Shown: one piece after another, positions 1,251-58,527 of the stretch
Position numbering within the stretch: position 1 is the first letter of the stretch
How the letters are laid out: each line of letters starts with the position of its first letter
Virus record (IMG/VR): IMGVR_UViG_3300020182_000023
Coordinates: 1-64,000 of that record
Source of the DNA: a virus
Reading direction: 5' to 3' (one strand)
Length of the DNA: 64,000 nucleotides
The notes under the pieces: generated by a model
The model's database searches: none
What the model was told of the DNA's origin: nothing
What the model saw: the letters and a program-made list of their open reading frames with translations, nothing else
Program-made: the position numbers and the translations under genes

Positions 1251-1615
1251 AATTCAAATTTTTCAGGTTTAATAATTCCAGTTTTTCTTCCAAGCCAATC
1301 AACAGTAATAGAAAAAATACCTGTTAAGGTATAGCCGCTTACCTCTAGTGTTAAATCTCCTTCGCCAGCTTTATTCAAAGCCCATTGTGTTATCTCTTCA
1401 TTATTAACACCACTATGAATTAGAGTTACAAAAATCGCGCTAAAAGTAAAGCCGATTATCATATTATTCCACCTTTTGGAAAACCATCTATAGAAACTGC
1501 GTTGAAATCCGTTCGGCTTTTTTCCGTAATAGTATTCGTGGTTTTGATAATGTATAAATTCTGAGGCAATTACCCCAACAAAAATTACAACAGCGTAAAT
1601 AAGTATTTCTTTCAT
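1247..1615 (-). CDS. Holin-like membrane protein
   Basis: 2-3 hydrophobic segments, upstream of the lysin. Confidence 0.4.
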   Translation of the reverse strand: MKEILIYAVVIFVGVIASEFIHYQNHEYYYGKKPNGFQRSFYRWFSKRWNNMIIGFTFSAIFVTLIHSGVNNEEITQWALNKAGEGDLTLEVSGYTLTGIFSITVDWLGRKTGIIKPEKFEL

Positions 1616-1627
1616 ATTTTTACGTTA

Positions 1628-2041
1628 ATCTGGTTAAATACCTCCATCTGTAATTGCCCAACCTTTTCCAACTAAACTTGCCCTTGCTGTTGAACTTGCT
1701 GCCGTATATTTAGCCGTTCCAAAACTTATAGTTATTGGAGTTTGGACTGGTCTAGAATCCCAACCATTATAGATAGCATCTAGGTTTGTTGAGCTAAAGG
1801 TAGAAGGAGTTTTAGTGCCCATAAAATTTACAAAATCCGTGACATTCGAAACATTCCAACTTCCTAAATTTTGGTCAAATGCTGGTGCATTATCAAACAT
1901 CCAAAACATATTAGTAACGCTACTTACATCCCACCCACCTATATTACTGTTGAAATTATTGCAACGGCGAAACATTTGACTCATATTTAACGCACTTGTA
2001 GGAGTCCAACTTGATATATTACCATTGAAATTAGTACATTG
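1628..2041. repeat. Copy 1 of a duplicated fibre 3' end (at least 414 bp)
   Basis: Matches 63587..64000 with 5 mismatches by manual alignment. Confidence 0.95.
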
Positions 2042-3901
2042 CTGAAACATCCGTTCAAATGTGGTAACGTTGCTAACATTCCAAGAATTTAAATTTTGAT
2101 TAAATGAAGAGCAACCAAAAAACATATATCTAGTATCCGTTGCACTAGCCATATTCCAAGAATCCAAAGGCTGGTTAAAAGAAGAGGCGCCATTAAACAT
2201 ACTTACGAAAAAAGTAACGTTGGAGACATCCCAGCTGGTAATATTACCGTTAAACGAAGAGCAATTGAAGAATGTTCCATTGAGATTAGTCATATTACTG
2301 ACATCCCAATTATTCATATCTACATTCAAACTGGAACAACCATTAAAAGTATTGGGTAAAGATGTAAGAGTTCCTAAATTTGGAGCATCAGTAAAGCCAC
2401 CCGTAAAATTGGCGCATCCACGAAACGAACTAGTCATGAACTCAAAAACATTATCTCCCCATTGGTCAATTGTAATGAGTTTTAATTTGTCTCCGCCATT
2501 ATTAAAATAAAACCCGCCAAATGAACCAGATATAGTTATTTGATATGTTCCACCGCTTGCGTATGTATGTGAAACGTTTCCTGCTGCTGCTGCGCTAAGA
2601 TTTCCATCACCCCAATCAATAGATGCCGAATAAGTTCCAGTAGAAGAAAAAGGAATTACCATCGTGTCTGATGCAGAGCCTGCTCTCGTAGTATCAACGG
2701 TCATTTTAAATGAAGTAAAATCCGTATGTGGTACCCAACAAGTAGATGTATTGAAATTGTTTAGTGTTCCGTTATAACCGTTAGTAGTTGCGTCAACTGC
2801 TACACTAGAGCCGCTAACTTCGTTTAAGTGGTAGCTGACTCTTGCAGAAGGCATTACTTCTAAAAACGAAGCACCGTTACCGCCATTATATAAATCGCTA
2901 ACTTGTGGTAAAGATGCTGCGGTAGTTACGTCTAAACCAAACTCATCCATAACTCCGTCAAACCATAACCCCGTTCGCCTATAAGAGCCTAGTTGATACA
3001 TGTTTAGGGTGTCATTAGTTGGGAGTTCTCCCGTTACGCTTTCTACGCCATCCCAATACAACCTGACATCATTATTACTATCTTTTGTAACGCATACATG
3101 ATGCCATTGATTTAATGTTACGGTAGGTATGGTAAAATTAAGCCTAGATAAAGCAGCACTTCCACCAGCAAATTGAACTCTAAATAATGTAGAATTTATA
3201 AGGTATAATAAATCGTTTGCTGAAGTATTACCGCCTCCTAAACTTACACCTGTTTTAGTCGGTTTTATCCATAACGAAATAGTCCATTCAAAAGCATTAC
3301 TAAGTATAGCGCCCCCTGACCCTAAATCAACATAATCATTAACCCCGTCAAACTCTAAGGCATTATTAAAAGCGAAAGCCAACTTTGAAACCAACTCTTG
3401 CTCATTCTCAAACTGAATACCTAAAGACTTGAATTTAAGAATCTCTGACTCTAGTTTCATTTTGTTATCGAAGCTTATACCCAACCTGCGAGCTATCTTT
3501 AAGTCAGCGGAGAGTTCTTGTTCATTCTCAAGGCTTATGCCAAGATTACGAGCTATCTTTAAGTCAGCGGAAAGTTCTTGTTCATTCTCAAGCTGAATAT
3601 CTAAAGCTAAAGACTTGAATTTAAGAATCTCTGACTCTAGTTTCATTTTGTTATCGAAGCTTATACCCAACCTGCGAGCTATCTTTAAGTCAGCGGAGAG
3701 TTCTTGTTCATTCTCAAGCTGAATATCTAAAGCTAAAGACTTGAATTTAAGAATCTCTGACTGCAACTCCATTTCATTCTCAAAGCTTATGTCTAGCTTA
3801 TGAACTATCTTATGAACTATCTTAGAGGGCGTAGATATTCCACCCCCTCCACCTAGAGAAGCGCCCGTACTGAATATACCTCTGCGTCCTAGTTTACCCA
3901 A
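1634..3901 (-). CDS. Tail fibre/adhesin: N-terminal repeats + LamG + PKD-like + BspA/DUF285 repeats
   Basis: ALEFDGVNDY..WHHV..GVMDE LamG motifs; IDWGDG..HTY..GTY PKD-like; repeated FNxxLxSWNVSNVT..MF units. Confidence 0.85.
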   Translation of the reverse strand: MGKLGRRGIFSTGASLGGGGGISTPSKIVHKIVHKLDISFENEMELQSEILKFKSLALDIQLENEQELSADLKIARRLGISFDNKMKLESEILKFKSLALDIQLENEQELSADLKIARNLGISLENEQELSADLKIARRLGISFDNKMKLESEILKFKSLGIQFENEQELVSKLAFAFNNALEFDGVNDYVDLGSGGAILSNAFEWTISLWIKPTKTGVSLGGGNTSANDLLYLINSTLFRVQFAGGSAALSRLNFTIPTVTLNQWHHVCVTKDSNNDVRLYWDGVESVTGELPTNDTLNMYQLGSYRRTGLWFDGVMDEFGLDVTTAASLPQVSDLYNGGNGASFLEVMPSARVSYHLNEVSGSSVAVDATTNGYNGTLNNFNTSTCWVPHTDFTSFKMTVDTTRAGSASDTMVIPFSSTGTYSASIDWGDGNLSAAAAGNVSHTYASGGTYQITISGSFGGFYFNNGGDKLKLITIDQWGDNVFEFMTSSFRGCANFTGGFTDAPNLGTLTSLPNTFNGCSSLNVDMNNWDVSNMTNLNGTFFNCSSFNGNITSWDVSNVTFFVSMFNGASSFNQPLDSWNMASATDTRYMFFGCSSFNQNLNSWNVSNVTTFERMFQQCTNFNGNISSWTPTSALNMSQMFRRCNNFNSNIGGWDVSSVTNMFWMFDNAPAFDQNLGSWNVSNVTDFVNFMGTKTPSTFSSTNLDAIYNGWDSRPVQTPITISFGTAKYTAASSTARASLVGKGWAITDGGI
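3385..3800 (-). repeat. Intragenic 60-66 bp tandem repeats (20-22 aa units)
   Basis: ENEQELSADLKIAR x3 and ESEILKFKSL-type units x3, near-identical at DNA level. Confidence 0.9.
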
Positions 3902-34783: not shown

Positions 34784-35240
34784 CTTCTTCTCTTTCTTTT
34801 GCTAGTTTATATTGGTAGGGGTTAATTTTTAGCCTTCTCATTCTTTTTTCGGGGTGGTTGTCTAGGTATTCTAATATCATTTCTTGTACGTCAATACCTT
34901 TTCCCATAGCCCAAGATAGGTTTCTTCTTACGTCTGACTCTAATGGCTCTGTTCCTAGTCTATGTATCCACATATTGTAAGACTTCTCATCCATCTGTAT
35001 TAAGTCTTTTCCGCCAAATTGCGCTGCATCAATAACGTATGAAGGGGATTTATTTAAAGCTAATGCAATAGCTATCACTTGACTTATGTTTAGTCTGTAT
35101 AGAGGTGCTGATAATATCTCCCTTATTTCGTTTGTGCTAGTAGTTTTAGGTAAACTAAGCAGCAATTTAATGTCTTTAAATATAAGCCCTGTTTGTAATA
35201 GCTTATCTAGTAGAAATATTTTACTGTCGTCTTTTATCAT
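34776..35240 (-). CDS. Putative HTH regulator
   Basis: LNISQVIAIALALNKSP resembles an XRE C-terminal helix; divergent from the rep-like gene. Confidence 0.4.
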   Translation of the reverse strand: MIKDDSKIFLLDKLLQTGLIFKDIKLLLSLPKTTSTNEIREILSAPLYRLNISQVIAIALALNKSPSYVIDAAQFGGKDLIQMDEKSYNMWIHRLGTEPLESDVRRNLSWAMGKGIDVQEMILEYLDNHPEKRMRRLKINPYQYKLAKEREEAK

Positions 35241-35400
35241 TTAACAGCAAAGATATTAAATTTAACTGCTGTATTTTGATTGAAATTGTCGCTTATATGC
35301 TACATTAATAGCTGTTTTTTTAGTTAATGATGGAATATTCATTCATCTGCTATATGTTTTTTTTTATCTCTTTTACTGTGTTTGTATAAAAAAAAATGTT

Positions 35401-35495
35401 TATGTTTGCATTAACAACGAGTGCAGTCGTTAGAAAATATTTAAAATCCTTCCGTTAGTAGGCTCTGCACAGCCGAAAGCGTGAAGGATTTTTTT
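35401..35495 (+). promoter_or_regulatory. Promoter + kissing-loop 5' leader (copy 1)
   Basis: TATGTTTG; hairpin AACGA-GTGCAG-TCGTT; second hairpin apical loop CTGCAC inside AAAATCCTTC/GAAGGATTTT. Confidence 0.7.
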
Positions 35496-35509
35496 ATACA
35501 TAATAATTT

Positions 35510-36130
35510 ATGAAAACAGGAAACATTGTAAAAGCTAAATTTACTGACGAGTTTGTTAGAATACATAACTCAATAGCTAGAAATCCGAAAATGTCAATGA
35601 AGGAGAAGGGTCTGTTATTGATAATAATGTCATTACCCGAAAACTGGACATTACACATAAGTCAGCTTCCCGCTTTTTGCGGAGAAGGGAAAACCGCTGT
35701 CAGAAATGCGTTTAAGTCCTTGAAAGAAAAAGGCTTTATTATTGAAGTTGAAATGAGGGCTTCCGATGGGAGGTTTAACGGGAAAAATTATATGGCTTAC
35801 TACGAAAGTCAAACCATTGAAGAATTTATGGTAAAACGCTCTACAACCAAGGCAGATTCACCGCGTGCGGGTTTTCGGGATGCGGATAAACGGGATGCGG
35901 ATAACAGGACACTACAAAGAAAGAACGTTACACTTAATAAAAAGAAAGAAAACAAAAAAGAAAAAAAAGAAAAAGAGCAGTTAGATTTTTCTTTTTTTCT
36001 TTTTAAGCTTAAGCAAGGTCAGCGCATACCAAAAACAGAAGTACCTAATCATTTATTAAATGAATTTAATTCTTCAACAGAAGTTTTGTATAATCAAGAA
36101 GAATCATATTACTTTATGCTACCATTTTAA
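35510..36130 (+). CDS. Replication initiator-like winged-helix protein
   Basis: F..I.N..MS.KEKGLL..SLPENW..AF..LKEKGFI HTH; internal repeats followed by a K/E-rich linker. Confidence 0.7.
   Translation: MKTGNIVKAKFTDEFVRIHNSIARNPKMSMKEKGLLLIIMSLPENWTLHISQLPAFCGEGKTAVRNAFKSLKEKGFIIEVEMRASDGRFNGKNYMAYYESQTIEEFMVKRSTTKADSPRAGFRDADKRDADNRTLQRKNVTLNKKKENKKEKKEKEQLDFSFFLFKLKQGQRIPKTEVPNHLLNEFNSSTEVLYNQEESYYFMLPF
35861..35905 (+). repeat. Iteron-like 15-bp repeats
   Basis: CCGCGTGCGGGTTTT / CGGGATGCGGATAAA / CGGGATGCGGATAAC, followed by A-rich then T-rich tracts. Confidence 0.6.
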
Positions 36131-36430
36131 TAACAGCGAATTAAACAAAAGATTATATGGAACTAGTGTATATCGAATTAAAATGTATAATAATTAAATA
36201 TTAAAACAATGGGAAGATTAACAGAAACAATGGCGTATTTAACAGCAGAACCCAATAAGTTTAGTAAGCTAACTAAGCAAGTGAACGGAGGATTCTTTTA
36301 TTTATCATATATAACTCCAAATGATGATTTAAAAAAAGTTAGAAGTAAAATGAAGCTATATAAGAAGGATTAACTTATATTAACCTTTACGTTAGGATGT
36401 TTTATTTATGTTTGACTTAAATAAAGAATT

Positions 36431-41277: not shown

Positions 41278-42375
41278 CTATTCTGCTTTATTACCGTGAC
41301 CACCAATACCATTCTCTTTCTTGTATTTTGAAATCTTAATCGCTATGTTAGATTGGGATGTTCCTAACTTCTCTGCTATTTTCCATTGTGGCATTGTCTT
41401 ATTCATTTCGTACAATTCTTTATAGTCGTATTTTCTGTTTCTTTTATCTAAGCCGTTAAGCCTAGCGCCAAATCTTTTTATAGCTGTTTCAACAGCCCCG
41501 TCACCACAATTATAATACTCAGTTAGCATTTTTAGCGTGTACCTCTTTTCTACTAAGCTTAAAAACTCATCTTTATCTGCTATACCATAGGGCTTAACAT
41601 AAATATCTTCACTTCTAAGCTCACCATACTTAATAATAATCCTTTTAACAGCACCAACACTAATCTGATACTTATCAGAAATAAACTCTATGCTATTACC
41701 AGATTCGTAGGACTTAGAAAAAACCTTACCCCTACAATCTTTGTAGTTGATATTTCGAGTTATCCGTACAATAGTAGGAGGAGATACATTAAACATATCA
41801 GCTATTTCCGTATTACTAACCAACTCTTCAGAATAAAGCCTTTTAATTTCCCGCTGCTCATCATAGGAGAAATTAGTAAACTTATCCTTAATAACCCTAT
41901 TACTCCTACCATCAAATACGCCTAGTTCAACCAACAGTGATTTAATAACAGCGCTTGATACATTATACTGATTAGCTATATAAGTTATAGGGTAAGACTC
42001 ATACATATCAACTATATTCTTCTTGTCAGAATCACTAAACGAATACTTAGTCCCAGATAAGTAACCAGCATCTTTCTGCCTTTTTCTATTTTCCTCTGGA
42101 GTAACCCACTCTAAGTTACTAGAGGCATTATTAAGCCTATTAAAGTCCTTATGGTCAACTTCGTGTCTATCGCTAGGAGGTAGCCCATTAAAAGCTAGAC
42201 AAACAAGTCTATGTACATACTGAGAGTGCCTGCCCTTTTCATTATGCCTAACTCCAACGGATAAGTACTTACCACCCTTTAATTGAGGCTTTAGTACATT
42301 ACCTCTCTTCTTATTATAAACATTTCCTAATTCATCTACTTGGTACTTATCGTACATTGGTATATTCTTTTTCAT
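41278..42375 (-). CDS. HNH homing endonuclease with multiple HTH repeats
   Basis: VHRLV..F..VDHKD.NRLNN..NLEWVT..EN; five HTH-like units. Confidence 0.85.
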   Translation of the reverse strand: MKKNIPMYDKYQVDELGNVYNKKRGNVLKPQLKGGKYLSVGVRHNEKGRHSQYVHRLVCLAFNGLPPSDRHEVDHKDFNRLNNASSNLEWVTPEENRKRQKDAGYLSGTKYSFSDSDKKNIVDMYESYPITYIANQYNVSSAVIKSLLVELGVFDGRSNRVIKDKFTNFSYDEQREIKRLYSEELVSNTEIADMFNVSPPTIVRITRNINYKDCRGKVFSKSYESGNSIEFISDKYQISVGAVKRIIIKYGELRSEDIYVKPYGIADKDEFLSLVEKRYTLKMLTEYYNCGDGAVETAIKRFGARLNGLDKRNRKYDYKELYEMNKTMPQWKIAEKLGTSQSNIAIKISKYKKENGIGGHGNKAE

Positions 42376-42708
42376 ATATTATATTTTTGTAGGTACAAAT
42401 ATAAGAAAAATAATTTAAATTTTGTGTGTATAGAGGGGTGTGGTATAATAAATAGTTCAATGCCCGCCTCAAACCCAATAAAAAACGGCTCAATATTACC
42501 CGAGTGGGTCAATATTTCAACTTCAAAAACATAACCACCACCACTACATTACACCACGTTACACCATAGCATTTATATCTACATTCCTTGCCTATGCTAT
42601 GCGCTTGATGCTATTGTATTTAACATTTATTAACAATGTATGTATCTTTTTTATATTACATTTGTCGCAGTATCCGATGTTGGATGCTACAATTTAATAC
42701 TATATATT

Positions 42709-48036: not shown

Positions 48037-48136
48037 TATATTTGCAACCTAAGAGCGTGAGACCTCAACTTAAAACATTTAGATAATTCCTTGCCGAGAA
48101 CCCTTCGGTCTCACGCCTTCTTGGTGGGGGATTATC
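48037..48136 (+). promoter_or_regulatory. Promoter + kissing-loop 5' leader (copy 2)
   Basis: TATATTTG; GAG-CGTGAGAC-CTC hairpin; loop TCTCACG inside a 19-bp stem with 5 G:U. Confidence 0.7.
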
Positions 48137-48154
48137 GACTTTATTATAATTATT

Positions 48155-48640
48155 ATGGCTGATAGAACACACGGAATGTCTAGCACTAGGGAATACAAGG
48201 TATGGAAGACTATAAAAGATAGGTGCTATGGAATTAATAGCGATTGCTATGACAGATACGGAGGCAGAGGTATAGTTATGCAGTATAATTGGATTAACAA
48301 CTACATAGAATACTATAATTATGCAAGTAAGATAGATGGATTCTCAGACCCTAATAAATCAATAGATAGAATAGATTCTAATGGAAACTACGAAGAGGGT
48401 AATATTAAATTCTCTACCCCTAGTCAACAATGCGCTAATAGAAGGCTATTCAAGAACTCTAAATCAGGCTACACTGGCGTAGTTAAAAAAGGAAAGAAAT
48501 ACGAGGCTACCATAAGCGTTAACGGTAAAAGGATATATATAGGAAGGCATAAAGACCCTAAAGTATTGGCTATAATGAGAGACGAATATATAATCAAAAA
48601 CAATCTTACCGAGTACCCACTTCAAATTTTAAATAGATGA
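48155..48640 (+). CDS. HNH-AP2 homing endonuclease
   Basis: W..IKDRC..YGGRGI, SIDRID.NGNYE.GN, SGY.GV..YIG AP2 domain. Confidence 0.85.
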   Translation: MADRTHGMSSTREYKVWKTIKDRCYGINSDCYDRYGGRGIVMQYNWINNYIEYYNYASKIDGFSDPNKSIDRIDSNGNYEEGNIKFSTPSQQCANRRLFKNSKSGYTGVVKKGKKYEATISVNGKRIYIGRHKDPKVLAIMRDEYIIKNNLTEYPLQILNR

Positions 48641-50595
48641 ATAAAGTATCAGTATTCAAGCACTATAAAGACACTCACAGCCCTATACACGCAGATGTAT
48701 TTGGTATCTTAGAAAAGATAAAGACTGGAGGTAACGAGAAAGAACTAATCGAACACATAAGAACCTTAGAAGGTGATGAATATAAGAAAGAGAAACTAAA
48801 ACTGCCGTTAATTTGCTTTGGTGGTACGTTTGGGAATAGAAGTAAAGACGGAATTATTAACGGTTCGGGTATGATTCCATTAGATTTTGATGAAGGCACT
48901 GAGGATGAACTTAATGAACTTAGAAAAACATTAGAGTCTCAGCCATACACAATAGCAGTATTCTCTTCGCCACGTTTAAGAGGTAGATTTAAAGCTCTTA
49001 TACGCATCCCTGTTACATCTTCGGATGAAGAGTTCAAAAAGTATTTTGCCGCCTTAAAAAAGGAGTATAAGACCATAGACCCTAGTGGTAAAGATATTTC
49101 CAGAGCATCGTTCTTCACCTACGACCCTGATATTTACATTAACAAAGATGCTACGGTGTGGGATATTAAATACGAAACACCTAAGCAAAAGAAAACAACA
49201 GAAAGATATACAGTTAGAGATTGGGATTCTGTTACCAATGCACTAAAGAAAATCGAGACAGCAGAAGATGGGTATAAGCATTTAGCTAGAACTAAGATTG
49301 CATATTTAATGGGAGGTTGGATTAGCGCAAAGCAAATTAACTACCAAGAGGCAATGAAATTATTAGAGGATGCCGTTGCTAAGAATACAACAGACCTTGA
49401 TGCTGCAATGAAAACCGTTAAGGATTGTGTACAAGCAGGAATGAACGCCCCACTTAATATGTCAGAGCAAAGAGAGGTATTAAAACTATCCGTTGCAGCC
49501 CCTAGAAGGTATAAGCCTATGTCTGAGGTATGGGATGATGTACAGAATTTCTATGAAACGGGCTATAAGCGTGGTTGGGATGTTGGGTTTAATTGTGCTA
49601 AAGAATATCTTAGCATCTTAGAGGGTAGTACTAGTTATGTTTATGCTGCGCCTGCTGCTGGTAAAACTCAGGTTTGGATGGAGATACTTATGAATATAAC
49701 CATTGACAGAGTTAGGAGTGGGGAAGATTTTTACAATCAAATATTCACGCCCGAAACGGGAGATGTAGCACAAGTGTATGGGGAGTTAATTAGTATTCAC
49801 GCTAAGAAATCTTTTGTTGGTAAATATAAGATGTCGGAAGATGAAATGAAAGCATCTGCTGATTTTGTATCTAAGTACTTTTTGATATTAGACTACGAAG
49901 GAGATACGGCTGATATGAAAGGAATATTAACACAAGTGGAGGCTGCTGAAAGAGAATTTGGAATACATATTAATACGGTTACTATTGACCCGTTAAACTA
50001 CCTATCTTTTGATGAGGGTAGATATAGTAGAAGGGATTTATCCATTGCTAAGGATTTAGATTTATTCCTTGCTGATGCCCGAAAAAATAAAAGGCATAAC
50101 TGTATAATAACCCATGCACGCGACCAGCAAGCAATTAAAAATAATGATGGTCAATGGTATTATCCGTTAGTCAGCCCTAGAATGATTTTAGATGGGCAAC
50201 AGTTTTTTAGAAAAGGTATGTTAATGATTAGTATATACAGACCATTAGATATAAAGAATGAGCCTTTAGCTGATGATAACGGTTATCCCGCAGAGCAGAA
50301 CGAAACCCAAGTATGGATACAGAAAGCTAAACCTAAAGGCTGCGCTAAGGTAGGTATGTTTAAATTATTCTACGACTTTAAGGCTAATAGATATTACGAG
50401 AAAGACGAACAAGGTAGAGAGTTCTTTGCTTGGGGAGTACCTAGACAGCAAGAAGATAAATTTCCGCCAATACAAAAGGAGATAAAGCAAATACCCCCCG
50501 TTAAGAAAGAAGAGGACTCATTAAAAGCTAACACAAGTTTTGATGAGCCAACCCCAATAATAGATGATATTGAAATAATGGAATCCCCATTTTAA
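48637..50595 (+). CDS. Primase-helicase (VirE/BT4734-like N-terminus + SF4 helicase)
   Basis: K.KLP..GTF..LDFD..F.SP..KAL..D.SG.D.SR..DP; Walker A AAPAAGKT, IDP Walker B, ITH, QKAKP. Confidence 0.85.
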   Translation: MNKVSVFKHYKDTHSPIHADVFGILEKIKTGGNEKELIEHIRTLEGDEYKKEKLKLPLICFGGTFGNRSKDGIINGSGMIPLDFDEGTEDELNELRKTLESQPYTIAVFSSPRLRGRFKALIRIPVTSSDEEFKKYFAALKKEYKTIDPSGKDISRASFFTYDPDIYINKDATVWDIKYETPKQKKTTERYTVRDWDSVTNALKKIETAEDGYKHLARTKIAYLMGGWISAKQINYQEAMKLLEDAVAKNTTDLDAAMKTVKDCVQAGMNAPLNMSEQREVLKLSVAAPRRYKPMSEVWDDVQNFYETGYKRGWDVGFNCAKEYLSILEGSTSYVYAAPAAGKTQVWMEILMNITIDRVRSGEDFYNQIFTPETGDVAQVYGELISIHAKKSFVGKYKMSEDEMKASADFVSKYFLILDYEGDTADMKGILTQVEAAEREFGIHINTVTIDPLNYLSFDEGRYSRRDLSIAKDLDLFLADARKNKRHNCIITHARDQQAIKNNDGQWYYPLVSPRMILDGQQFFRKGMLMISIYRPLDIKNEPLADDNGYPAEQNETQVWIQKAKPKGCAKVGMFKLFYDFKANRYYEKDEQGREFFAWGVPRQQEDKFPPIQKEIKQIPPVKKEEDSLKANTSFDEPTPIIDDIEIMESPF

Positions 50596-56777: not shown

Positions 56778-56870
56778 TATATTTGTATAGTAGAGTTACG
56801 GCTACTTTTAAATATTTTTACAAAGCCCTGTCAAGAGTAGAGTCCGTAACCTCGAAATTGATGGGGTTTA
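56778..56870 (+). promoter_or_regulatory. Promoter + kissing-loop 5' leader (copy 3)
   Basis: TATATTTG; AGTAG-AGTTACGG-CTACT; GAG-TCCGTAAC-CTC inside a 12-bp stem with 3 G:U. Confidence 0.7.
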
Positions 56871-56875
56871 TTTTT

Positions 56876-57661
56876 ATGCAAGAGTTTACAAAAGAAGAAT
56901 TAAAAAACGAAGAGTGGAGAGATGTAGTTGGATACGAAGGATTGTATCTGGTTAGTGATTTAGGGAGAGTAAAAAGCAGTTACATTGTTAGTAGGGCTAA
57001 AGATGGAATCATTAAAATGGGGAGCGATAAGAATGGGTATTGCAGTTTCGCTTTATGGAAAGACAAATCACAAATTACCAAGAATGGACATCGTGTAGTC
57101 GCTAAAGCATTTTTACCTAATCCAAAAAACAAACCGTGCGTGAATCATATAGATGGTGATAAAAGGAATAATCGAACAACCAACCTAGAATGGGTTACAT
57201 ATAAAGAAAATTCCCGACACGCGATTGAAACTGGTCTGTATAGACACCCTGAAATGAAGAAGGGGTACGACTCGCCACACAGTAAAGAGGTGTATCAGCT
57301 TACGGTAGAGGGTGTTTTTATAAAAGCGTTTGGTTCATCTATCGAGGCGGCTATAAGTTTATTTGGAGATATTAATAGAGGCTCTATTATACGCAAATGC
57401 TGTAGAGATAAATCAAGTTCTTATAAGGGTTTTCTATGGAGATACCCTAAAGACGTTAATAAAGATGCGATTTCAAAACATAAAAGAATAATACAACAGT
57501 TTTCTTTAGAGGGGATTCTTATTAAAGAGTATACTGGTACTAGTGCAGCCCAAAAAGCCACTGGAGTCTTGGCTACTGGTATAGGGAACAATGCAAACGG
57601 GAGGACAAATACCGCTGGGGGGTTTGTCTGGAAATATAAATATGATTACAATTCAATATGA
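56876..57661 (+). CDS. NUMOD4-HNH-NUMOD1 homing endonuclease
   Basis: EEWRDV.GYEG.Y; HRVVA.AF.PNP..VNHIDG; two NUMOD1-like repeats; start moved to MQEF. Confidence 0.9.
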   Translation: MQEFTKEELKNEEWRDVVGYEGLYLVSDLGRVKSSYIVSRAKDGIIKMGSDKNGYCSFALWKDKSQITKNGHRVVAKAFLPNPKNKPCVNHIDGDKRNNRTTNLEWVTYKENSRHAIETGLYRHPEMKKGYDSPHSKEVYQLTVEGVFIKAFGSSIEAAISLFGDINRGSIIRKCCRDKSSSYKGFLWRYPKDVNKDAISKHKRIIQQFSLEGILIKEYTGTSAAQKATGVLATGIGNNANGRTNTAGGFVWKYKYDYNSI

Positions 57662-58527
57662 AAGAAACAATATATTCTTGGAGTAGGGTTAACTATACTT
57701 GTTTAGCCGCTTGGTATCAAAATTATGTACTAGAAAAGAAGGGTGAGGACAACATCTGGAATGTCGGAGGTTTATTCGAGCATAACCTAATGGAACACGC
57801 AGCTAAAGGCGCAATGACACAAGAGGATTGCCTAGAAGCTGTTAAGAATACTTGGTACGATGCTGTTGATGGATTAGACAACCCATTTGGGTACTACGGT
57901 AAAGAAGGTAATTACATTGAAGCCGCTGAACATTACTACAACAAAACACTTCCGTTCTTCACTAAGGAGAATACTAATTGGTTATTAGGTAAAACAGTTT
58001 CAGTAGAAGAGCATTTAGAATTTACCCTTCCTTCGGGCAAAAAATTTCAAGGCTTTGTAGATAGAGTAAGTGTTGATAGTGATGGAAAGAGCAACCTAGC
58101 CATCAGAGATTATAAAATAAGCAAACGCTTTACAAGAAAAAACGTAAAAGAAAAGGCTAGACAGCTATACATTTACGCTTATGGCTATCATCAGAAACAC
58201 GGAGTATATCCAGAGCAATTAGTTTTTGAGTTCTTTCAATTTTGGGACAAACCAAAGGTTATTAAGTTCAAGAAAACTGATATGGATGAGGCTATTGAGT
58301 TTGCTGAAAGTAGAATAAGAGAGATTGAAGGTAGATTAAAGGTAGAGAGAATGGGTATGAAGGGAATGTTTAACCCTGACTATAAAGAACTATTAGATGA
58401 TAACGGAGAGCGTAATATGTTCTGTAAGTCTGTCTGTGGGTATCGTAATGTCTGTCCTTTCATAGACGGAAACCACCTCAAAATGTTTAAAACAAAAGAG
58501 TTACAAGATATAGAAATAAAAAAATAG
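57658..58527 (+). CDS. Cas4/AddB-like PD-(D/E)XK exonuclease
   Basis: G..EH, E..L, G.VDR, DYK, QL.IY, C-terminal C..C..C plus N-terminal Cys. Confidence 0.85.
   Translation: MKETIYSWSRVNYTCLAAWYQNYVLEKKGEDNIWNVGGLFEHNLMEHAAKGAMTQEDCLEAVKNTWYDAVDGLDNPFGYYGKEGNYIEAAEHYYNKTLPFFTKENTNWLLGKTVSVEEHLEFTLPSGKKFQGFVDRVSVDSDGKSNLAIRDYKISKRFTRKNVKEKARQLYIYAYGYHQKHGVYPEQLVFEFFQFWDKPKVIKFKKTDMDEAIEFAESRIREIEGRLKVERMGMKGMFNPDYKELLDDNGERNMFCKSVCGYRNVCPFIDGNHLKMFKTKELQDIEIKK

Follow-up and report, generated by a model that had tools for sequence, protein, structure and literature searches.

Introduction

A sequence-only reading of a 64,000-nt stretch of viral DNA (the window) drew attention to position 35401, where a promoter appeared to be followed by two hairpins with complementary loops ahead of a replication gene, and so raised the question of whether such a leader is a genuine RNA element and what the pairing of its two tips would do. 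Here, we describe the analysis of this leader (site 1), of two leaders of similar layout at 48037 (site 2) and 56778 (site 3), and of homologous leaders from viral and metagenome contigs. The complementary words carried by the two tips of a leader are referred to as its code, and the loop-loop helix that they can form as the kiss.

The phage and its promoters

The window comprises the first 64 kb of a 78.7-kb IMG/VR record that is estimated to be 74% complete. Its primase/helicase has only distant relatives (~25% identity), in Maribacter, Flavobacterium, Riemerella and Cellulophaga phages, and the sequencing runs that contain the phage are chiefly marine, with some freshwater; the window is therefore read, from these sequence comparisons, as an uncultured phage of the marine Flavobacteriia type. 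Large structural genes run leftward to the left of 35.2 kb, and small early and replication genes run rightward from 35.5 kb. No integrase or repressor was found in the part of the phage seen, and judged on this part the phage looks virulent. Two regions outside the leaders were also recorded. A gene-free divergent region of 260 nt (42376-42640), lying between an HNH endonuclease gene and the next rightward gene, holds ACCAC-rich repeats and folds strongly (-42 kcal/mol), and is a possible origin or regulatory region. A 1.1-kb direct repeat (window 1612-2718 and genome 63570-64677, 98.3% identity) lies inside two leftward genes ~62 kb apart, and could be a tail-fibre/receptor module in common or the mark of a chimeric or wrapped assembly.

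The total count of TAnnTTTG in the genome is close to the composition expectation, yet the boxes are concentrated before genes. Using start sites taken from the sequence (first ATG of ORFs of at least 60 aa), an ORF start lies 0-40 nt downstream of 26 of the 106 boxes in this genome, compared with 3-9 for five control motifs. With this enrichment before gene starts, TAnnTTTG behaves as the -7 box of a predicted Bacteroidota sigma-A promoter. The distance from box to ATG is 101, 110 and 90 nt at sites 1, 2 and 3, respectively; these three leaders of ~100 nt are exceptional, because the other early genes have only 4-33 nt. Many early genes (36768, 37103, 39339, 51414 and others) have a box 4-9 nt from the ATG, just 4 nt in five cases, so that many early mRNAs would be leaderless or near-leaderless. 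In the largest leader subfamily (L084 and L011, with 19 related loci), a hairpin, TTGACA-ACCTCGCGTGGTTGT, is conserved shortly before the TATGTTTG box (~30 nt ahead of this -7 element) and may be an operator.

Three leaders with complementary hairpin tips

All three leaders (Table 1) present, after the promoter box, a small hairpin, an A/U linker and then a long hairpin that ends 6-18 nt short of the ATG, with tips complementary over 6, 8 and 7 nt at sites 1, 2 and 3, so that three different codes occur within one genome.

Table 1. Coordinates of the leader elements and of associated genes, numbered by position in the window.
Feature	Position	Strand	Basis or remark
Site 1 promoter -7 box TATGTTTG (TAnnTTTG)	35401-35408	+	Read directly
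Site 1 hairpin 1, AACGA-GTGCAG-TCGTT; 5-bp stem, 6-nt loop GTGCAG (35421-35426)	35416-35431	+	Sequence and fold
Site 1 linker, A/U-rich, 11 nt	35432-35442	+	Sequence and fold
Site 1 long terminator-like hairpin, stem 35443-35492, basal stem AAAATCCTTC/GAAGGATTTT	35443-35495	+	Sequence and fold
Site 1 internal loop AGTA/GAA, within long hairpin	35457-35460/35475-35477	+	Sequence and fold
Site 1 apical hairpin GGCT-CTGCAC-AGCC, loop CTGCAC (35465-35470)	35461-35474	+	Sequence and fold
Site 1 U7	35489-35495	+	Followed by 14 nt, then ATG at 35510
HTH_36/DnaD-like replication initiation protein, 206 aa, behind site 1	35510-36130	+	Pfam PF13730; PHROG 186, 4707, 428
HNH endonuclease, 365 aa	41278-42375	minus	Fourth HNH gene; ordinary short leader
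Site 2 promoter box TATATTTG	48037-48044	+	Sequence
Site 2 first code GCGTGAGA, in weak 3-bp hairpin (GAG/CTC)	48055-48062	+	Sequence and fold
Site 2 long hairpin, 22 pairs, several G-U	48082-48136	+	Fold; no canonical U-run after it
Site 2 second code TCTCACGC, in 17-nt apical region	48109-48116	+	Fold
Operon behind site 2 (48155-50595): HNH endonuclease, ATGA overlap with primase/helicase	48155-48640; 48637-50595	+	PHROG 374, PHROG 18375, Pfam PF08800
Site 3 promoter box TATATTTG	56778-56785	+	Sequence
Site 3 hairpin 1; 5-bp stem, 8-nt loop AGTTACGG, code 56795-56801	56789-56806	+	Fold; aligned with homologues
Site 3 long hairpin (stem 56823-56869) with AGTA/GAA internal loop, then UUUAUUUUU	56823-56875	+	Fold
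Site 3 apical GAG-TCCGTAAC-CTC, within long hairpin	56844-56850 (code)	+	Kissing helix covaries with homologues
Operon behind site 3 (56876-58527): NUMOD4-HNH endonuclease overlapping PD-(D/E)XK nuclease	56876-57661; 57658-58527	+	Domain searches
AGUA/GAA module	35457-35477; 56837-56857		Also in L126, L153 and L008

The layout first claimed for site 1, namely promoter box, hairpin 1, A/U linker and long hairpin with complementary loops, is borne out by direct reading and by folding (-27 kcal/mol, z = -3.2). The two 6-nt loops are exact reverse complements (duplex -7.8 kcal/mol), and CTGCAC occurs a single time in the 78.7-kb record, as the apical loop of site 1, where its composition-based chance is ~1e-4. 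Because the relatives of site 1 are only near-identical, its 6-bp kiss is without direct covariation. Reading of the sequence found no ATG-initiated ORF inside the site 1 leader. A frame of 10 codons opening with GTG (35481-35513) starts within the 3' arm of the terminator stem, and its TGA stop shares bases with the ATG of the initiator (ATGA), an arrangement that may be coincidental; positions 35932-36014 inside the initiator gene were treated as a repeat in read placement. One metatranscriptome has parts of the phage, in contigs that span 34920-35255 and 36015-36157 and leave the site 1 leader uncovered; a second run has nothing of the phage.

Site 3 also has the structure first claimed for it, with GTTACGG in hairpin 1 and CCGTAAC in the long hairpin, giving a 7-nt match (GUUACGG/CCGUAAC), followed by the U-run and the ATG at 56876. 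The 9-mer of its second tip, TCCGTAACC, has two further copies in the genome (13642 and 19281), inside leftward structural genes, where ~0.3 are expected; no pattern was seen among them.

Site 2 is the weakest of the three copies. Sequence and fold uphold the shared layout with complementary tips, but the match is 8 nt (GCGUGAGA/UCUCACGC, duplex -12.4 kcal/mol), hairpin 1 is weak, no clean U-run follows, and local UCUC/GAGA pairing in the apical region competes with the kiss. The word TCTCACGC has one copy in the 78.7-kb record. Three related contigs have an identical site 2 leader and flanks of 98-99% identity, while from the ATG on they carry an unrelated HNH gene and a primase/helicase allele of 25% identity, the last ~27 residues of which are identical; homology is back at 50515. 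The mosaic junction is thus the start codon behind the leader (window 48155-50514 versus L205:2232-4615), and since the leader is unchanged while the nuclease is swapped, it belongs to the operon position and not to the nuclease cassette. Homology of site 2 to the leader of L116 and L204 was considered and rejected, as only the box plus 3 nt and a 12-nt tail are common and the middle is not alignable; the two are alike in layout, and nothing beyond that is claimed. The genes behind the leaders form whole replication/recombination operons (initiator; HNH and primase/helicase; HNH and PD-(D/E)XK nuclease) and are not nucleases alone; the role first suggested for the leaders, that of limiting potentially toxic DNA-acting proteins, is conjectural.

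Homologous leaders and covariation

The initiator behind site 1 was aligned with four relatives, leading to ~160 loci from viral and metagenome contigs with 102 distinct upstream regions. In minimum free energy folds, loop-loop complementarity of at least 6 nt is present in 39 of the 102 leaders of HTH_36 genes, and of at least 7 nt in 36. Controls gave 3 of 510 shuffles, none above 6 nt, and 2 of 102 coding regions of the same loci. A terminator-centred scan of all retrieved DNA returned 60 partners compared with 14-20 for control words, in a set that is biased to HTH_36 leaders and with an "in loop" filter that is too lax. Reading of the sequences shows more than 20 different codes among the leaders, including CCUUCGAC/GUCGAAGG, GGUCUCAG/CUGAGACC, GAGCUACAC/GUGUAGCUC, GAGCAAC/GUUGCUC, GAACCAC/GUGGUUC and UUCGCGG/CCGCGAA. 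Related leaders contain many code variants that are off by one or two letters, and the L085 group has two codes in mosaic combination with other leader parts. Leaders L061, L126 and L149 have sigma-70-type promoters and Shine-Dalgarno sites, so the design extends beyond Bacteroidota phages. Most GenBank phages that encode a homologous initiator are without the leader: Bacteroides phage BK649P1 has an unstructured 130-nt spacer, and in Maribacter phage Panino the replication operon is preceded by a leader that bears a terminator but lacks complementary tips.

An AGUA/GAA internal loop, resembling loop-E or sarcin-ricin motifs, adjoins the apical kissing hairpin in five independent lineages and in both orientations. 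It is present in 13 of 105 sequences, compared with 4.3 in shuffles and 1 on the reverse strand, and may be a protein or tertiary contact site.

The three copies had been described as fully covaried. They are not mutually alignable, so that this description is a loose one; true covariation exists with homologues, directly so for site 3. The site 3 leader can be aligned with seven leaders of HTH_36 genes in other phages (alignment A4, n = 8), which have in common AGCCCUGU...GGGGUUUAUUUUU and the loop frames AG.....G and UC.....AC. In this alignment all 8 sequences form the kissing helix, with 4 of its 7 pairs changed on both sides, and hairpin 1 covaries as well. The score is equalled by none of 500 shuffles, and pairing falls to 20-54% when the partner is slid by 1-3 columns. 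An alignment of the homologues minus site 3 was also examined for covariation, and the kiss is supported there too. In two haplotypes of one phage, which differ at ~50 of 3,300 positions (~1.5%), the 130-nt leaders differ solely by TCTCACC/GGTGAGA versus TGCGACC/GGTCGCA, that is, by 3 adjacent and 3 compensating substitutions. The earlier idea that the loops could act as orthogonal codes is compatible with this switch of code between near-identical haplotypes.

In 24 of 27 leaders, folding is more favourable for the sense strand than for its complement (mean -34.5 versus -28.1 kcal/mol, p = 2e-5), and the stems contain G-U pairs, which together place the structure in RNA of the coding strand and not in duplex DNA. 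Searches against Rfam 15 gave no match at gathering score (window), at E <= 10 (35000-57200) or at E <= 1 (20 homologous loci), the guanidine-IV and C4 models included; this was the check that the sequence-only reading had proposed for novelty. A trpB-motif match on one homologous leader (36 bits against a cut-off of 59) was dismissed as noise. The survey and the covariation, with no existing family matched, support the proposal of a real, recurrent class of sense-strand cis RNA leaders, and on these sequence comparisons we consider it highly probable that the element is a genuine kissing-loop leader RNA.

Proposed mechanism

The sequence-only reading had left open an attenuator or a translational switch. 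Hairpin 2 has the anatomy of a canonical intrinsic terminator: a U5-U8 run follows it directly in 18 of 25 lineages when scored automatically and in 21 of 25 when judged by eye, the difference arising because spurious outer pairs masked three cases. A stable stem with a U-run between promoter and start is found at sites 1 and 3 and is lacking at site 2; a canonical U-run is missing at site 2 and in 3 of 22 other lineages. Across lineages the stem of hairpin 2 ends 6-31 nt before the start codon, and the hairpin leaves free the start codons beyond it, as it does the Shine-Dalgarno sites that the non-Bacteroidota members have there. The element therefore has the look of an attenuator, and the notion of a translational switch does not fit. 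A simple terminator scan missed all three long hairpins, and its one match at site 3 is another small hairpin (56848-56868) sharing the same U-run; the scan is uninformative for sites 1 and 2 because its loop limit excludes branched stems.

In the mechanism that we propose, a TAnnTTTG-type Bacteroidota promoter would start the transcript, the first structure of which would be the small hairpin. Some 40-60 nt later, the polymerase would make the long hairpin, a predicted intrinsic terminator (U5-U8) in most lineages, 6-30 nt before the start codon and with a tip that is Watson-Crick complementary over 6-9 nt to that of the first hairpin. The kissing helix would then set the share of polymerases that read through the terminator and reach the replication/recombination genes. 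We infer both the actual termination at the U-run and the direction in which the kiss acts. That the element is a ligand-free kissing-loop attenuator gating transcription at the terminator is, on the sequence evidence, a reading to which we give even odds.

As to direction, a kiss forming as the terminator tip emerges would strain the short linker, hinder closure of the basal stem and promote read-through, and anything that blocks the kiss would restore termination, so that the kiss would serve as a built-in antiterminator, one open to being switched off by a competitor. Linkers measure 11-16 nt, compared with stacked helices of ~31-34 bp, and by rough estimate a linker is only just long enough; with the precedent of the guanidine-IV riboswitch described below, this favours antitermination, which by analogy we propose tentatively. 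Kissing complexes can coexist with both stems, and the kiss might therefore stabilise the terminator instead of opposing it. A constitutive built-in antiterminator would also need an input signal, and none was identified in this analysis, which speaks against it.

Alternative explanations

Resemblance by chance at site 1, site 2 or both would have to be considered in an AT-rich genome, since site 1 pairs over just 6 nt, hairpin 1 of site 2 is weak, and ~100 chance matches per strand come up when this genome is scanned loosely for two hairpins whose 6-nt loops are complementary; for this last reason the significance of the leaders rests on comparative data. The probability of finding the exact complementary word in the second tip is, however, 6e-5 to 1e-4 per site, the single-copy words CTGCAC and TCTCACGC lie in these tips, and site 1 precedes the very gene family whose leaders carry the motif in more than 20 lineages, all of which leaves coincidence barely credible. 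A feature of the DNA itself, such as operator half-sites in inverted repeat that would bind the HTH protein, a site that folds as single-stranded DNA, or a conserved linker at which modules recombine, is hard to reconcile with words that always lie in hairpin tips, with G-U pairs in stems of leaders that fold better as the sense strand (24 of 27), with the same design before unrelated proteins, and with a promoter-to-start position and U-run that are typical of RNA. The site 2 leader does end exactly at a mosaic junction, with the HNH and primase block replaced from the ATG on, and the site 1 gene encodes a DNA-binding initiator; even so, a DNA-level explanation seems very improbable.

Among RNA-level alternatives, the kiss could act after transcription by locking the mRNA's 5' end in a compact, rod-like form, which would protect against 5'-end-dependent RNases, make an RNase III-type processing site or adjust how ribosomes load on the A/U-rich segments, the U-run being incidental. 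Hairpin 1 lies ~10-20 nt from the presumed 5' end, the linker is unpaired and rich in A/U, as is the sequence ahead of the ATG, the kiss is kept at site 2 and in a few lineages that have no good terminator, and the AGUA/GAA module beside the apical hairpin in five independent lineages could be a protein or tertiary contact site; textbook terminators with a GC-rich stem and U5-U8 in most lineages are nevertheless hard to call incidental, and start sites that are never sequestered offer no obvious translational switch, so we regard such a role as quite unlikely. The tips could also be addresses, as in P4 CI/P1 c4 RNAs or plasmid copy control. A terminated leader would accumulate and pair by its tip with nascent leaders of the same code, acting as an RNA-only, dosage-sensing brake with feedback on replication-gene transcription, or as a code-specific exclusion of co-infecting close relatives, and codes would diversify to escape cross-talk. 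Complementary tips on one strand recall the P4 seqA/B/C and P1 a/b sites, but an intramolecular kiss would sequester both tips of the free leader. The 3+3 adjacent compensating substitutions in otherwise identical leaders of haplotypes 1.5% apart, the many one- and two-letter code variants, the mosaic combination of two codes in the L085 group and the three codes in this one genome would all suit addresses, yet independent cis elements would show different codes too. Accumulation of a short RNA is without support, the metatranscriptome contigs having left the leader uncovered; neither C4 nor any other Rfam family is matched; and the phage looks virulent in the part seen, with no integrase or repressor found there and with an HNH endonuclease encoded at 41278-42375. 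Action in trans is thus, in our judgement, rather unlikely. If it were true, the change from TCTCACC/GGTGAGA to TGCGACC/GGTCGCA would be an escape event, and the codes would be the phage equivalent of plasmid incompatibility groups, made of nothing but sense-strand RNA.

Comparison with known systems

We found no description of the element in the literature, and the main text of a catalogue of more than 10,000 candidate viral RNAs is silent on kissing loops. What we rate as new, from the sequence comparisons, is a putative kissing-loop-gated terminator that has neither a ligand site nor conserved letters and is missing from Rfam. Matching tips are its sole conserved feature, which would explain its absence from sequence-based catalogues. 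If the attenuator reading is right, phages of several bacterial phyla have in common a protein-free, ligand-free RNA gate on their replication/recombination genes, which would add a layer to phage early gene control and supply designers of RNA circuits with dozens of natural kissing pairs that are orthogonal to one another.

In the lambda PR'-6S RNA-tR' unit, a strong promoter is followed by a terminator within ~100-200 nt, and the downstream genes depend on read-through. The leaders resemble it as promoter-proximal terminator units, but in lambda the Q protein is required and kissing tips are absent; a search of the 74%-complete record for a Q-family antiterminator protein found none. The phi29 pRNA has two mutually complementary loops on one phage RNA, with letters that covary between relatives. 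Unlike the tips described here, pRNA loops pair between molecules to form the ring of the packaging motor, and the pRNA is free-standing and not a terminator-bearing leader.

The P4 CI RNA (seqB with seqA/seqC) and the P1/P7 c4 RNA (a'/b' with a2/b2) derive from promoter-proximal leaders that are complementary to their own transcript; they are tRNA-like, processed and trans-acting, with a conserved fold (Rfam C4). As in these systems, the leaders carry mutually complementary segments on one transcript, ahead of genes whose expression they would control; such genes are of the early, replication or antirepressor kind, and the specificity letters differ between relatives. Unlike them, the leaders have no C4 match, and the partner is the tip of a predicted intrinsic terminator.

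In antisense control of plasmid rep leaders, loop letters set specificity, and loops are exchangeable as orthogonal codes (PMC3753616). The leaders resemble pT181/pIP501 and IncI-alpha/IncB repZ in having loop-loop recognition in the leader of a rep gene, which in the plasmids decides termination or expression. The loop partner in the plasmids comes from a countertranscript of the opposite strand, so that complementarity is automatic, whereas here both partners are on the sense strand and must co-evolve. An antisense promoter as in IncI-alpha/IncB would require a minus-strand TAnnTTTG box, and none occurs inside the three leaders; unlike IncI-alpha/IncB, no leader peptide is needed.

The closest mechanistic precedent, by analogy, is the platform of the guanidine-IV riboswitch, in which the tips of P1 and of the terminator hairpin form a kissing loop and, as the linker is shortened, this contact and the completed terminator stem are in steric competition (PMC11611296). 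As in guanidine-IV (mepA motif), the tip of a 5' hairpin here kisses the tip of a terminator hairpin, as indicated by fold, covariation and anatomy, and the outcome, read-through or termination there, would be the same here. The conserved loop nucleotides of guanidine-IV form a ligand pocket and its weak kiss needs guanidine, whereas the loops here are without conserved sequence and form 6-9 ordinary Watson-Crick pairs that differ in every lineage. The genes also differ: guanidine-IV precedes guanidine exporter and detoxification genes, and the leaders described here precede genes for the initiator, HNH endonuclease, primase/helicase and PD-(D/E)XK nuclease.
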